A stretch of DNA of 32,285 bases, taken from the IMG/VR virus record IMGVR_UViG_2728369188_000005, one strand, 5' to 3'. The notes under the pieces were generated by a model. That model saw only the letters and a program-made list of their open reading frames with translations, was not told the DNA's origin and ran no database searches. This DNA comes from a virus. Its lineage: Duplodnaviria > Heunggongvirae > Uroviricota > Caudoviricetes. The stretch's first letter is position 1; each line of letters opens with the position of its first letter. Position numbers and translations under genes: made by a program. This document shows positions 1 to 3,922 of this stretch, one piece after another.

Positions 1-1857
1 ATGGCATTTAAACACTATGATGTTGTCAGGGCGGCGTCGCCGTCAGATCTTGCGGAAAAGCTGACACATAAACTGAAAGAGGGCTGGCAGCCGTTTGGTA
101 GTCCGGTGGCCATAACCCCTTATACCCTGATGCAGGCGATTGCAGCAGAAGGTGATGTGGTCGTCAGTGGTGCAACTGAGCCGGAGTGGTACTACGTCAT
201 CGTACTGGCCGGGCAATCCAATGCCATGGCTTACGGTGAAGGGCTTCCGCTTCCGGATTCTTACGATGCGCCCCACCCACGCATTAAGCAACTGGCCCGT
301 CGCAACACAGTGACTCCCGGTGGTAAAGCATGCGCATTTAACGACATCATTCCGGCAGACCACTGCCTGCATGATGTTCAGGATATGAGCGCACTGAATC
401 ATCCGAAGGCAGACCTGAGCAAAGGGCAGTACGGCTGTGTCGGCCAGGGCTTACATATTGCCAAAAAACTGCTTCCGTATATCCCGAATAACGCGGGGAT
501 CCTGCTGGTACCATGCTGTCGTGGTGGTTCGGCATTCACCCAGGGCGCGGAGGGGACATTCAGTGCGGACACGGGGGCCAGCCAGGATTCGGCACGCTGG
601 GGTGTGGGTAAACCGTTATATCAGGACCTGATCGCACGCACCAAAGCGGCATTACAGAGGAACCCGAAAAATGTGTTGCTGGCGGTGTGCTGGATGCAGG
701 GCGAATTTGACATGAGCGCTGCCACCTACGCACAGCAACCGGACCTGTTCACGGCCATGCTGAAGCAGTTCCGTACTGACCTTTCCGGATTTAACGCGCA
801 GTGCCATGGCGGCAGTGCTGCAGTTGTACCGTGGATTTGTGGCGACACGACGTATTACTGGAAAAACACATACGGCACACAGTATGACTCCGTCTACGGC
901 GCGTACAAAAACAGGGAGAGCGACAACGTTTTCTTTGTGCCGTTCATGACCGACGGTAACGGCAACAACACGCCCACCAACTTACCGGCAGAAGACCCGG
1001 ATATTGCTGATGCAGGTTATTACGGCGCGCAATCCCGTAGTAATGGTAATTGGGTATCATCAAATCGCCCGACGCATTTCAGCTCATGGGCGCGTCGTGG
1101 CATTATTCCCGATCGTATGGCAACTGCTATTCTGAACGTAGCCGGTCGCACCTTAGCCTTCATTAGTGGTAAGGCACCGGAAATCAAACCCTCGCCCGGC
1201 GGCGACACTCCATCGGGGCCGTCTGATGGTGACACATCCGTTCGTACAGTCTCCCTGCTGCCGACAGCCGGAGAGGCTGCTGCGCAGGGCTGGACCATCA
1301 CCGGCGGCAGTGTTGCGCTGGAAGATGGTGTGTTTAAGGTTACCAAGCAGAGCAATAAAACCTGGTCCCTGATGCATCCGGTGGATGACGCAGTCTCCCT
1401 GCTGACACGGGGTGGCAGACTGAGCTGTAAGTTTCGACTGTCAGGCGCACTGACCAACAACCAGTTCGGTCTGGGAATTTATCTGTATACCGATGTAGCG
1501 TTACCTGACGTCGTGGCGATGACCGGGACTGGTAACCCGTTCCTGATGTCGTTCTTCACCCAGACCACAGACGGCAAACTGAATCTGATGCATCACAGGA
1601 AAGCAGGAAACACAAAGTTGGGCGAGTTCGGGAATTACAGTAACGACTGGCAGACGCTGGAGCTGGTGTTCACCGCCGGCAGTGCCACGGTTACTCCGAA
1701 ACTGAATGGAGTGGCTGGCCCGGCATTCCAGGTCATAAAAGACAGTCTGACACTGGGGCTGAATGCGCTGACGCTGACGGATATTACCAAAAATGCAGCG
1801 TATGGCGTTGAGATAGAAAGTCTGGTGCTGGAGATAAATGCACCGGCATCATCATAA
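1..1857 (+). CDS. nanS-p: NanS-p-like 9-O-acetyl-N-acetylneuraminate esterase (SGNH/SASA-type sialate O-acetylesterase), 618 aa
   Basis: 618-aa ORF whose N-terminus (MAFKHYDVVRAASPSDLAEKL...) and GQSN esterase motif (VIVLAGQSNAMAYGEG) match, from memory, the prophage esterase found downstream of stx in Stx phages. Its position immediately upstream of the lysis cassette fits that layout. The ATG is at window position 1, so the start cannot be checked against upstream sequence. Confidence 0.75.
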   Translation: MAFKHYDVVRAASPSDLAEKLTHKLKEGWQPFGSPVAITPYTLMQAIAAEGDVVVSGATEPEWYYVIVLAGQSNAMAYGEGLPLPDSYDAPHPRIKQLARRNTVTPGGKACAFNDIIPADHCLHDVQDMSALNHPKADLSKGQYGCVGQGLHIAKKLLPYIPNNAGILLVPCCRGGSAFTQGAEGTFSADTGASQDSARWGVGKPLYQDLIARTKAALQRNPKNVLLAVCWMQGEFDMSAATYAQQPDLFTAMLKQFRTDLSGFNAQCHGGSAAVVPWICGDTTYYWKNTYGTQYDSVYGAYKNRESDNVFFVPFMTDGNGNNTPTNLPAEDPDIADAGYYGAQSRSNGNWVSSNRPTHFSSWARRGIIPDRMATAILNVAGRTLAFISGKAPEIKPSPGGDTPSGPSDGDTSVRTVSLLPTAGEAAAQGWTITGGSVALEDGVFKVTKQSNKTWSLMHPVDDAVSLLTRGGRLSCKFRLSGALTNNQFGLGIYLYTDVALPDVVAMTGTGNPFLMSFFTQTTDGKLNLMHHRKAGNTKLGEFGNYSNDWQTLELVFTAGSATVTPKLNGVAGPAFQVIKDSLTLGLNALTLTDITKNAAYGVEIESLVLEINAPASS

Positions 1858-2007
1858 AAAGTGAGCCAGTCAAATGGAAGGTATCGTTAAACTCACCGGT
1901 AGTGTCAGTGGGTCGTCTGAGATGCCTGCATGAGTTATCAGAGCCATCAGTACTTAACTGGTGGCTTTTTTTATTGTTGTCAGCTTCCGGATAACGGGAG
2001 ACGGGGT

Positions 2008-2223
2008 ATGTACCAGATGGAAAAAATCACAACAGGTGTGTCATACACCACGTCAGCGGTGGGAACGGGCTACTGGTTCCTGCAGTTGCTGGACAGGGTT
2101 TCCCCGTCTCAGTGGGCGGCAATAGGCGTGCTGGGGAGTCTGCTGTTTGGGTTGCTGACATATCTGACTAACCTGTATTTCAAAATCAGAGAGGACCGTC
2201 GTAAGGCGGCGCGGGGAGAGTAA
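2008..2223 (+). CDS. S: Class II holin (pinholin, phage 21 S-like), 71 aa
   Basis: [71 protein letters not shown] closely matches the S21/933W pinholin as I recall it, with two TM segments and a charged C-terminus. The six-frame ORF begins at 1930, but the upstream extension overlaps a hairpin and has no homology; ATG 2008 gives the canonical dual-start MYQM. Confidence 0.85.
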
Positions 2224-2227
2224 AGCG

Positions 2228-2572
2228 ATGAAGAAAAAATACGAACTGGTTGTTAAAGGGATAAATAATTACCCGAATAAGATTACTGTTACTGTGGCAC
2301 TGGAAATTGGTGGGTATCCGTCACTGTTGTTGCCAGATGTGGCGATTAGTCTTGACCGTACTGAAGATGCCACGCTGGAGTTTTACGAAGCTGAGGCGAA
2401 AAAGCAGGCGAAGCAGTTTTTCATGGATGTTGCTGCCGGGTTATGTGAAGGGGATGGTCCGTTGCCGGAAAAGCGCCCCGTAATTTTAGAGGCGCAGGAT
2501 GTGTTGATAACCTACAGAGGAAAACTACCGGGAATAATTACTGGTTCTCTGAAGACTCCACCGCTGGCCTGA
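2228..2572 (+). CDS. Hypothetical soluble protein, 114 aa, inserted between holin and endolysin
   Basis: Intact ORF with a GGGGAGAG Shine-Dalgarno 8 nt upstream, starting 4 nt after the holin stop. No TM segment or signal peptide; I do not recognise the fold. Some lambdoid prophages carry an uncharacterised gene at this position (ydfR in the K-12 Qin prophage, recalled from memory). Confidence 0.6.
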   Translation: MKKKYELVVKGINNYPNKITVTVALEIGGYPSLLLPDVAISLDRTEDATLEFYEAEAKKQAKQFFMDVAAGLCEGDGPLPEKRPVILEAQDVLITYRGKLPGIITGSLKTPPLA

Positions 2573-2622: not shown

Positions 2623-3156
2623 ATGAACACCAAAATCAAATACGGCCTGTCGGCTGCCGTTCTGGCGCTGATTGCCGCAGGTGCGCCTGCGCCTGAAATC
2701 CTCGACCAGTTTCTGGATGAAAAGGAAGGTAACCACACCACGGCATACCGTGATGGCGCGGGTATCTGGACCATCTGCCGCGGTGCCATCCTGGTGGATG
2801 GCAAACCTGTCGTTCCGGGCATGAAGTTGTCGAAGGAAAAATGCGACCGGGTTAACGCCATTGAGCGTGATAAGGCGCTGGCATGGGTGGAGAAAAACAT
2901 CAGAGTGCCATTGAGTGAACCCCAGAAAGCGGGGATCGCGTCATTCTGTCCGTACAACATTGGCCCCGGTAAGTGTTTTCCGTCGACGTTTTATAAACGA
3001 ATTAATGCAGGTGATCGCAGGGGAGCGTGTGAGGCGATTCGCTGGTGGATTAAGGACGGTGGCAGAGACTGCCGTATTCGCTCAAATAACTGTTACGGTC
3101 AGGTATCCCGTCGTGACCAGGAGAGCGCGCTGGCGTGCTGGGGAATCGACAGATAA
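2623..3156 (+). CDS. R: SAR endolysin (signal-arrest-release lysozyme, GH24, phage 21 R-like), 177 aa
   Basis: N-terminal weakly hydrophobic Gly/Ala-rich segment (YGLSAAVLALIAAGAPAPEIL) typical of a SAR domain, followed by a T4-lysozyme-like catalytic region (EGNHTTAYRDGAGIWTICRG). Paired with a pinholin as in phage 21. Confidence 0.9.
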   Translation: MNTKIKYGLSAAVLALIAAGAPAPEILDQFLDEKEGNHTTAYRDGAGIWTICRGAILVDGKPVVPGMKLSKEKCDRVNAIERDKALAWVEKNIRVPLSEPQKAGIASFCPYNIGPGKCFPSTFYKRINAGDRRGACEAIRWWIKDGGRDCRIRSNNCYGQVSRRDQESALACWGIDR

Positions 3157-3246
3157 GCAGAATATTTTGCTAATCAATGACGTTGGCCAAGGCGGACGGA
3201 TAACACGAAATCCTGCGAACTGGCAAAATGTAAGTGAATAAAAGTA

Positions 3247-3285
3247 AAAACCCCGTTTGTTGGCTGCAAGCGGGGTTTTGTGTTT
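3247..3285. terminator. Hairpin with flanking A/T runs after R (intrinsic-terminator-like, either strand)
   Basis: AAAACCCCG(3247-3255) pairs with CGGGGTTTT(3271-3279) across a partly pairable 15-nt loop, followed by GTGTTTCC. An A run precedes it, so it could terminate on either strand. Confidence 0.45.
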
Positions 3286-3354
3286 CCTGACTCTGGAAAA
3301 GTCAAAGGAGAAAGTGTGTTTGATTTTAGCAAACTGATTCGGGAGATTCGAGTG

Positions 3355-3453
3355 ATGGCTGAAAAATTATCCACCTGGAAGTTCATTCTTATCTGGCTGG
3401 TGTTTGTGATTATGGCCTCCGGTTATTTCATCGGTCAGATACGCTGGTGGTGA
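3355..3453 (+). CDS. Candidate 32-aa hydrophobic peptide (MAEKLSTWKFILIWLVFVIMASGYFIGQIRWW)
   Basis: ATG 3355 is preceded by GGGAG (3341-3345). It encodes one predicted TM helix and stops at TGA 3451-3453, one nt before the Rz ATG (3455). Below the 60-aa ORF-track cutoff; found by manual reading. Confidence 0.3.
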   Translation: MAEKLSTWKFILIWLVFVIMASGYFIGQIRWW

Positions 3454-3454
3454 A

Positions 3455-3922
3455 ATGAACCGCGTACTGTGCGTGGTCATCATTGCCCTGCTGGTGGCCT
3501 GTGGTGCGCTTAGTCTGGGGCTGAATCATTACCGTGATAACGCCATAACCTACAAAGAGCAGCGCGATAAAAAAGTCAGTGAGCTGGAGCAGGCAAATGC
3601 AACCATTACTGATATGCAGCAGCGCCAGCGTGATGTTGCTGCACTTGATGCCAGATACTCGAGGGAATTAGCCGATGCGAGAGCTGAAAATGAAACTCTG
3701 CGCGCTGACGTTGCCGCTGGTCGTAAGCGCCTGCGGATCAACGCCACCTGCCCCGGTACCGTGCGTGAAGCCCCCACCACCTCCGGCGTGGATAATGCAA
3801 CCGGCCCCCGACTGGCAGACACCGCTGAACGGGATTATTTCACTCTCAGAGAGCGGTTGATGCTGATGCAGAAGCAGCTGGAAGTGGCGCAGGAATATAT
3901 CCGCACTCAGTGCCTGAAATAA
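3455..3922 (+). CDS. Rz: Rz i-spanin (inner-membrane spanin subunit), 155 aa
   Basis: N-terminal TM segment (VLCVVIIALLVACGAL), then a coiled-coil periplasmic domain; collinear with lambda Rz and contains the embedded Rz1 frame. Confidence 0.9.
   Translation: MNRVLCVVIIALLVACGALSLGLNHYRDNAITYKEQRDKKVSELEQANATITDMQQRQRDVAALDARYSRELADARAENETLRADVAAGRKRLRINATCPGTVREAPTTSGVDNATGPRLADTAERDYFTLRERLMLMQKQLEVAQEYIRTQCLK
3675..3860 (+). CDS. Rz1: Rz1 o-spanin (outer-membrane lipoprotein) embedded in the +1 frame of Rz, about 56-61 aa
   Basis: MRELKMKLCALTLPLVVSACGS has a lipobox (VVSAC) and is followed by the proline-rich PPPPPAWIMQPAPDWQTPLNGI motif typical of lambda Rz1. GAGGGA 8 nt upstream of ATG 3675; alternative start at ATG 3690. 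Confidence 0.85.
   Translation: MRELKMKLCALTLPLVVSACGSTPPAPVPCVKPPPPPAWIMQPAPDWQTPLNGIISLSESG

Follow-up and report, generated by a model that had tools for sequence, protein, structure and literature searches.

What does a lambdoid prophage carry between its endolysin gene R and its i-spanin gene Rz, and how might that cargo be controlled? We address this question for IMG/VR virus record IMGVR_UViG_2728369188_000005, a stretch of 32,285 nucleotides (hereafter the window), the start of which is the late region of a lambdoid prophage, as judged from Pfam and PHROG profile matches of its open reading frames (ORFs). The R stop codon (3154-3156) and the Rz ATG (3455) are separated by a 298-bp spacer, which holds a terminator-like hairpin, a leader and a 45-codon gene (Table 1). 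What is new here is a promoter-like constraint at synonymous sites of this gene, which points to a possible antisense promoter within the coding sequence.

The spacer contains a 45-codon gene under purifying selection

The initial annotation described a 32-codon ORF starting at ATG 3355, with GGGAG nine nucleotides upstream. Both elements are present in the sequence, but the product has 45 rather than 32 residues. In the Salmonella phages FSL SP-016 and SPN3UB, in SEN34, and in Pseudomonas phages, the 13 residues encoded upstream of this ATG are conserved with different codons, and we therefore place the start at GTG 3316, which is preceded at a spacing of 5 nt by the Shine-Dalgarno (SD) sequence AAGGAG (3305-3310). 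The start codon is GTG or TTG in every allele except the distant L381 (ATG), and PHROG 6632 matches the product over its full length (E=1.2e-29; residues 1-45 align with all 45 positions of the profile). The internal ATG encodes Met14, which is invariant, and codon 9 always ends in G before GAG or GAA; GTG1 and ATG14 are each preceded by an SD-like motif. Other readings were rejected. A 57-codon frame from GTG 3280 begins within the terminator tail and has neither an SD sequence nor conservation, and database versions of 64-86 amino acids are over-extended gene calls. A minus-strand ORF of 70 amino acids (3174-3386, annotated in CP-1639) crosses the terminator, and the substitutions fit the plus frame.

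The ORF was expected to escape automated annotation. However, the Prokaryotic Genome Annotation Pipeline calls a hypothetical protein of 45 amino acids, WP_000459345.1, in 19 of the 30 best RefSeq matches, and the CP-1639 record carries the same gene call. The gene is already catalogued as a hypothetical protein, yet it is unnamed, unstudied and inconsistently annotated. The PHROG 6632 and WP_000459345.1 entries record no function, RNA partner or cassette structure, a full-text literature search found no paper on the protein, and K-12 Qin contains no named homologue of the mini-gene. The protein and its sister tiny ORFs (described below) have no match in Pfam, NCBIfam or PADLOC. The protein does not match the holin families of Pfam and PHROGs either, whereas the true holin of the window matches one of them (Table 1).

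AlphaFold2 (AF2) models the product as one continuous helix spanning residues 4-44 (predicted local distance difference test score 86.7). Read from the sequence, the hydrophobic core or transmembrane (TM) segment comprises approximately residues 22-41 and is followed by a C-terminal RWW. The N-terminal part of about 20 residues is amphipathic with a net positive charge, and is therefore probably cytoplasmic. The product is thus predicted to be a single-helix inner-membrane protein.

The substitution pattern indicates a genuine gene, whose translated frame is under selection and encodes a single-helix membrane peptide. The ratio of non-synonymous to synonymous substitution rates (dN/dS) lies between 0.05 and 0.25, and within the TM part synonymous changes far exceed non-synonymous ones (for example 11 vs 5, 14 vs 4 and 11.5 vs 3.5). 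Conservation of the ORF through synonymous changes had been proposed as a check in the initial annotation, and these numbers bear it out. Frameshifts or stops in homologous insertions had been named as evidence that would speak against the gene. Among 110 usable IMG/VR loci, anchored on the hairpin sequence only, no copy of the window gene's family (family A; the labels A-D are our own) is broken in the 64 loci that carry one (36 + 27, plus L374), and 248 of the 250 copies examined are intact. Two rare E. coli alleles, P0025 and P0027, have a compensated double frameshift in the TM segment or a C-terminal frameshift; since each stands alone in its cluster, decay of the copy or a sequencing error is the likely cause. 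The family consists of short proteins only (41 clusters of 32-86 amino acids among 1.84 billion representatives), and its homologues, at 47-98% identity, come from at least 12 genera.

Invariant synonymous sites resemble an antisense promoter

Several codons in the 5' part of the gene show no synonymous variation: Asp3 (GAT, 20/20), Phe4 (TTT, 18/18), Ser5 (AGC, 20/20), Leu11 (TTG, 12/12) and Arg12, for which the rare codon CGA is used in 20 of 20 cases. Codons 7-9, codon 13 and all codons of the TM segment vary freely, as exemplified by Phe23 (TTC 9, TTT 12) and Arg43 (CGC 5, CGT 3, CGA 3). On the minus strand, the first frozen block reads TGnTAAAAT, in agreement with the extended -10 pattern TGnTAnnnT of a sigma-70 promoter. 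The TGn motif is found in 24/24 alleles, and T1, A2 and T6 of the -10 hexamer in 23/24; only the least critical positions of the hexamer vary. Even the amino acid replacements at residue 3 (D, N, Y or H, with a codon that is always NAY) all retain the base that gives T6. The second frozen block, at codons 11-12, provides a -35-like hexamer at a distance of 17 nt, and CGA is the sole arginine codon that yields both T1 and G3 of the -35. The Pseudomonas copies keep GAT TTT AGC..CGA, next to flanking genes that use TTT in 3 of 35, GAT in 11 of 43 and CGA in 4 of 50 cases. We considered messenger RNA structure over codons 1-16 as the cause of the frozen sites, and rejected it because the consensus folding energy of this region is 0, as it is on the opposite strand.

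From the positions of the promoter elements and the hairpin we infer the boundaries of a minus-strand RNA of about 80 nt, which would start near the complement of the start codon, cover the SD sequence and the leader, and terminate at the hairpin. Folding of this predicted RNA gives a two-hairpin structure (-21.9 kcal/mol, z=-3.8). Such a short antisense RNA would probably keep the membrane-protein gene silent.

The hairpin and the leader are conserved as structures

A strong terminator-like hairpin downstream of R was noted in the initial annotation, and it is real. It comprises an A-tract (3238-3250), a stem-loop with 14 pairs (3247-3279) and a T-rich tail (3276 to about 3289). The upstream A-tract belongs to the conserved unit and forms a T-tail on the minus strand. 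Across 19 distinct alleles, 97% of the cells in hairpin 1 are paired and 7 of 11 pairs are changed on both sides. For helix 2, in the leader, the values are 85% and 3 of 5 pairs, and none of 500 shuffles reached the observed pairing in either case. Single-sequence folds of the leader agree in most alleles though the sequences differ. On the sense strand, the stem of the ~30-nt leader is predicted to occlude the strong SD sequence, and conservation of the leader is high beyond the SD as well.

Searches of Rfam with the window region, six related loci and the whole window gave no match at the gathering score; the best matches, to the rimP leader (28-30 bits vs a gathering score of 47), are weak and driven by the terminator. 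A promoter scan found no sigma-70-like sense promoter between the hairpin and the ORF, and because homology begins at the hairpin A-tract, there is no room for one.

Hairpin, leader and gene travel as one unit

The hairpin, the leader and the ORF co-occur in every context, and homology between unrelated contexts starts at the A-tract and stops at the stop codon. By these limits, the three elements form one portable unit (3238-3453), a small cassette carried by many temperate phages. Its hosts include Escherichia, Salmonella, Citrobacter, Trabulsiella, Edwardsiella, Yersinia, Sodalis, Brenneria, Pantoea, Providencia, Pseudomonas and one metagenome-assembled genome of Azoarcus. Its GC content is 0.43 vs 0.55 in the flanks here, and 0.54 vs 0.62-0.66 in Pseudomonas.

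Two kinds of context are found. In the first, the cassette is flanked by an endolysin gene, from any of five PHROG families, and by a gene for an Rz-like spanin, from any of four; the enterobacterial lysis contexts comprise five cassette types with non-homologous endolysins and spanins, and the position is always immediately upstream of the i-spanin. In the second, it lies in the baseplate cluster (SEN34, Pantoea and Yersinia-type), after a tail fibre gene (Sodalis), beside the tail assembly genes K and I (Pseudomonas), or between internal virion proteins of a T7-like phage (Azoarcus). Because the same hairpin-ORF unit is also present in tail, baseplate and internal-virion clusters, its distribution marks it as moron-like, horizontally mobile cargo that is not lysis-specific. 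The repeated placement just ahead of the i-spanin is still notable. As in a moron, the unit sits between genes that adjoin in relatives. However, a scan of the hairpin-ORF interval found no sense promoter of its own upstream, and the unit has no terminator of its own downstream: the single terminator is upstream, and the stop codon TGA (3451-3453) lies 1 nt ahead of the Rz ATG, as described in the initial annotation.

The spacer was originally viewed as a 300-bp insertion into a junction at which R directly abuts Rz in lambda and phage 21. In K-12 Qin, the sole case verified, rrrQ and rzpQ indeed overlap, leaving no gap between the endolysin and Rz-type genes, and the gap in the window is therefore extra DNA. 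The spacer is real but composite, since its first ~90 nt (3157-3250) are common to 933W-type phages, which have other cargo beyond; PhiR5_2 also has other cargo at this junction. The R-distal segment (3157-3237, GC 0.44) is a joining point for differing cargo, such as ant, which follows it in 933W, and small TM genes. Of 5426 complete E. coli genomes, 2068 contain at least part of the spacer DNA and 871 contain its full length; it is also found in H-19B and in many Stx1a, Stx2a and Stx2c phages.

Several individual loci deserve mention. Antirepressor genes of the Rha or Ant type adjoin the cassette or the hairpin in L134 (2889-3443, baseplate context) and L003 (2769-3338, the R-Rz junction of 933W), and such junctions appear to be common hot spots for moron cargo. 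In L103 (2680-3111, Dryocola) and L384 (2501-2644, human metagenome), the hairpin and the TM/C-terminal half of the protein are retained, and the N-terminal 13-20 residues, together with the TGCTAAAAT element, are swapped for unrelated sequence. These natural chimeras could be used to separate the function of the protein from that of the RNA. In CP-1639 (L002 2015-2800), the spacer and the 45-codon gene follow only ~500 bp after stx1B, and no esterase, holin or endolysin is annotated in between, which suggests that a deletion took most of the lysis cassette and spared the mini-gene, Rz and Rz1.

Arrays of tiny membrane-protein genes occupy the same junction

Downstream of the same hairpin, many E. 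coli prophages have as many as four tiny single-TM ORFs ahead of Rz. These ORFs are tightly packed, with overlapping or abutting stops and starts, and form variable, translationally coupled sets. Examples are L184 (1802-2349, from IMG/VR, with an arrangement found in 36 of the 110 hairpin-anchored loci), L004 (2570-2985) and the L356-type loci. We distinguish family A, which comprises the window gene and of which the arrays carry a second allele; family B, beginning MSDKLIT...; family C, with the internal stretch ...DDISRALAFAIKWVAVG...; and family D, ending in ...LIRAMAFAIRIVAIAVLVWAIRWW. Families C and D look paralogous, and family D has the C-terminal IRWW and the Rz junction in common with the window gene. 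PhiR5_2 has a family C ORF behind this hairpin and leader, and its minus strand carries a TATACT hexamer whose offset from the start codon is the same. In 933W (L003 3335-3484), ant is followed by an unrelated and unannotated family B TM ORF of 48-49 amino acids immediately upstream of Rz. The 933W-type prophage Sakai Sp15 (L261 14749-14895) likewise carries ant plus the family B gene ECs_5741, annotated as hypothetical.

A tandem arrangement is also seen in the K-I context of Pseudomonas phage YMC11/02/R656 (L007 3171-3287), where the family A gene is followed by a 38-amino-acid TM ORF, MNAKDAGIVGKRLANAALILATGVAIASIIAAIGVVLG, which echoes the E. coli arrays.

The stacking of tiny genes ahead of Rz suggests that the four genes of the textbook description do not make up the whole lysis cassette in many lambdoid prophages, among them Shiga-toxin phages, in which the timing of lysis governs toxin release.

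A working model and its alternatives

We hypothesize that the cassette is a mobile late-operon moron, in which a late membrane protein is gated by a cis-antisense RNA, and we give this composite reading slightly less than an even chance. In the lysogen, the hairpin would block stray read-through from upstream, and a constitutive antisense RNA would pair with any sense transcript getting through, so that the membrane protein stays off. Upon induction, Q-antiterminated late transcription would pass the hairpin and swamp or occlude the antisense promoter, and the membrane protein would be made along with R and Rz. Ribosomes that finish the mini-ORF may re-initiate on Rz, which is likely translationally coupled to it. 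The protein would then act late in infection at the inner membrane. Our best guess is a membrane-active accessory factor that tunes envelope disruption or membrane energisation, and that would not depend on any one lysis system, given that copies of the cassette are found among tail and baseplate genes as well.

Several observations weigh against this model, of which the function assigned to the protein is the weakest step. The -35 hexamer is weak (3 of 6 consensus positions), and a generic promoter scan did not call the minus-strand site. The extended -10 pattern occurs six times in the window, with 5.3 occurrences expected by chance; because its frequency is at chance level, the case for the antisense RNA is carried entirely by conservation across species. 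The distant, GC-rich homologue L383 has neither a good -10 element nor a T-tract hairpin. G-U wobbles at the apex of hairpin 1 favour folding on the sense strand (~16 cells vs 3), AU-rich 5' ends with rare codons are also favoured for translation initiation, and the internal SD sequence with ATG14 could add to the synonymous constraint. Finally, a mid-operon terminator would be polar in baseplate and tail operons that lack Q-type antitermination.

One alternative, which we consider unlikely, is that the cassette is a plain late gene for a small membrane protein with no antisense RNA. The frozen sites would then reflect the needs of translation initiation, namely a start region that is AU-rich and free of structure, initiation at a weak GTG and possibly the internal SD/ATG14, and the hairpin would be only a sense-strand terminator or a stabiliser of the mRNA end. 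The silence of the promoter scan and the apical wobbles agree with this explanation, as do the good terminator on the sense strand, the occlusion of the SD sequence by the leader stem, the non-ATG starts in all alleles but L381, and the rare codons common in the 5' part. However, it leaves unexplained why variable codons separate two invariant blocks that are spaced by exactly 17 nt, why no Arg12 codon other than CGA occurs and codon 3 is substituted only within NAY, and why the A-tract that forms the minus-strand T-tail is inside the conserved unit; nor is any sense-strand structure conserved over codons 1-16. A different possibility, an antiholin-like or spanin-associated role, was raised in the initial annotation. 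The product, possibly in forms of 45 and 32 residues, would time lysis together with the pinholin, the SAR-type (signal-anchor-release) endolysin and Rz/Rz1. Its position directly upstream of the i-spanin in five enterobacterial cassette types, the 1-nt gap to Rz, the invariant Met14 with a conserved GGAG-like motif ahead and the sister genes stacked at the same junction are in line with such a role. Yet the proposal is weakened, and in our view improbable, since the same-hairpin homologues in SEN34, Pantoea, Yersinia, Sodalis, Pseudomonas and Azoarcus lie far from lysis genes, no holin or antiholin family matches the protein, and lambda-type cassettes such as that of Qin work without the mini-gene. 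A 'releasin'-type role specific to SAR endolysins was also rejected: the partner endolysins in Edwardsiella and Citrobacter have no hydrophobic N-terminus and look soluble by eye.

The RNA itself could be the main product, either as a trans-acting prophage small RNA (sRNA) or as an anti-sRNA that overlaps the leader of a small ORF. The presence of the hairpin and leader, together with the minus-strand TATACT hexamer, ahead of a different ORF family in PhiR5_2 and many IMG/VR loci, and the conservation of the leader beyond the SD, would fit this idea, and prophages of enterohaemorrhagic E. coli encode sRNAs of 51-60 nt antisense to the late operon (PMC4104026). It is nonetheless distinctly improbable, given the clear purifying selection on the protein and the lack of a matching Rfam family. 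A host-benefit moron expressed in the lysogen, acting as a superinfection-exclusion or defence membrane protein or as an abortive-infection type I toxin, is very improbable. Small prophage membrane proteins often exclude phages, as HK97 gp15 does, and the moron-like distribution, the low GC content, the small hydrophobic peptide and an antisense layout like that of type I toxin-antitoxin loci are all compatible with such a role. But no sense promoter lies between the hairpin and the ORF, the left boundary leaves no room for one, PADLOC gives no match, and the upstream terminator argues for silence in the lysogen. The type-I-toxin-like character raised in the initial annotation is indirectly favoured by the conserved promoter-like elements and the terminator of the opposite strand, but the locus is not a classical stand-alone toxin-antitoxin system, because no autonomous sense-strand promoter was found.

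Returning to the antisense-gated moron, we speculate that terminator-leader-miniORF units might constitute an unrecognised class of portable, antisense-gated cassettes for micro-membrane-proteins, which, in temperate phages, would stack combinatorially (families A-D) both between endolysin and spanin genes and at tail-gene junctions, and would add an overlooked layer of lysis or late membrane control in Gram-negative phages, for example by timing the spanin or holin or by collapsing the membrane potential. This broader generalisation is unlikely as it stands.

Layout of the locus

The genes surrounding the cassette, together with its own elements, are listed in Table 1. The N-terminal hydrophobic stretch of endolysin R is SAR-like as read by eye, and the terminase and structural genes are located downstream of Rz/Rz1.

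Table 1. Features in and around the R-Rz spacer of the window.
Feature	Position	Strand	Evidence or remark
SASA-type esterase (sialate esterase gene)	1-1857		
Class II holin, phage-21-type	1930-2223		PF04971
DUF1327/YdfR gene	2228-2572		
Endolysin R, 177 aa, phage-21-type lysozyme	2623-3156	+	PF00959, E=1e-23; phrog_7 endolysin
R-distal part of the spacer, also present in 933W-type and other Stx phages	3157-3237	+	matches in 933W-type records cover query 1-86/95 only
Predicted ~80-nt cis-antisense RNA	3237-3317	-	boundaries from promoter and terminator positions
Terminator-like hairpin, features on both strands	3238-3289	.	terminator scan, homology start, compensatory changes
Leader, second small stem pairing into the SD sequence	3290-3315	+	single-sequence folds, pairs changed on both sides
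45-codon gene, GTG start, product MFDFSKLIREIRVMAEKLSTWKFILIWLVFVIMASGYFIGQIRWW	3316-3453	+	WP_000459345.1, phrog_6632, homologues, dN/dS, AF2
Predicted extended -10 promoter element TGCTAAAAT, codons 3-6	3323-3331	-	pattern match, allele conservation
-35-like hexamer TCGAAT (TCGCAA in most alleles), codons 11-12	3346-3351	-	17 nt from the -10
32-codon reading from the internal ATG (Met14), GGGAG 9 nt upstream	3355-3453	+	possible second, shorter product, unproven
Rz i-spanin	3455-3922	+	PF03245, E=8e-49
Rz1 o-spanin, embedded in Rz	3675-3860	+	PF06085, E=8e-21

Comparison with known systems

Prophage sRNAs have been described at the esterase-holin position and 3' of stx, rather than between R and Rz (Tree et al., 2014; Pas sRNA preprint). 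PasA and PasC are located at the former position, in the order esterase-PasA-holin-lysozyme (Zhu/Shabalina/Storz, 2026, preprint). Between the sialate esterase gene and the beginning of the holin gene, the window has a GC hairpin with seven consecutive T behind it (1943-1972); it has no Rfam match.

The dual starts of holin/antiholin pairs (lambda S105/S107, phage 21 S68/S71) resemble the mini-gene in that a small membrane protein has two candidate in-frame starts. However, the starts are 13 codons apart here, compared with 1-3 in the holins, and the mini-gene encodes a single TM helix, matches no holin family and is not confined to lysis cassettes. The morons of lambdoid phages, reportedly described by Juhala and by Hendrix and their colleagues in 2000, share with the cassette the extra DNA between otherwise adjacent genes, the lower GC content and the several alternative junctions. 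In a classical moron, a sense promoter of its own precedes the gene and a terminator follows it, whereas the cassette has its terminator upstream and its sole promoter-like element faces in the opposite direction.

Type I toxin-antitoxin systems (Hok/Sok, Ldr/Rdl, Ibs/Sib, TisB/IstR and ZorO/OrzO) likewise combine a single-TM peptide of fewer than 60 amino acids with an antisense RNA over the region of the translation start, which in our case is a prediction. In contrast to these systems, the cassette has no toxin promoter and no sequence similarity to them, and it lies within a phage late operon behind a terminator instead of being autonomous. Phage P22 carries the sar RNA in its ant moron, immI (PMC2629481; citing Liao et al., 1987 and Wu et al., 1987). 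As in the arrangement predicted here, a small antisense RNA controls the gene of a late-operon moron in a phage; the target in P22, however, is an antirepressor, the Arc and Mnt repressors are present in addition, and the two loci are not related in sequence.

A precedent for the placement of the putative promoter is SymR of E. coli, a 77-nt RNA transcribed from a promoter that lies within the coding sequence of symE, opposite its 5' end (Kawano, Aravind and Storz, 2007; PMC1891008). The predicted layout of the cassette resembles that of symE in placing an antisense promoter inside the coding sequence of the target, although both promoter and RNA are predictions in our case. SymE differs in being a larger, soluble protein related to MazE/AbrB, encoded on the chromosome under its own LexA-controlled promoter, whereas the cassette has a 45-residue membrane helix as target, has no promoter of its own and resides in phage late operons. 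The cis-antisense geometry predicted here, with a promoter in the 5' coding region, an RNA over the SD sequence and start codon and an end at the terminator, is maintained in 23-24 of 24 alleles. Should the antisense RNA exist, the cassette would be a compact and very widespread case of a promoter encoded in the synonymous sites of a 45-codon gene, and would illustrate how phages hold back a membrane-active late protein in the lysogenic state.

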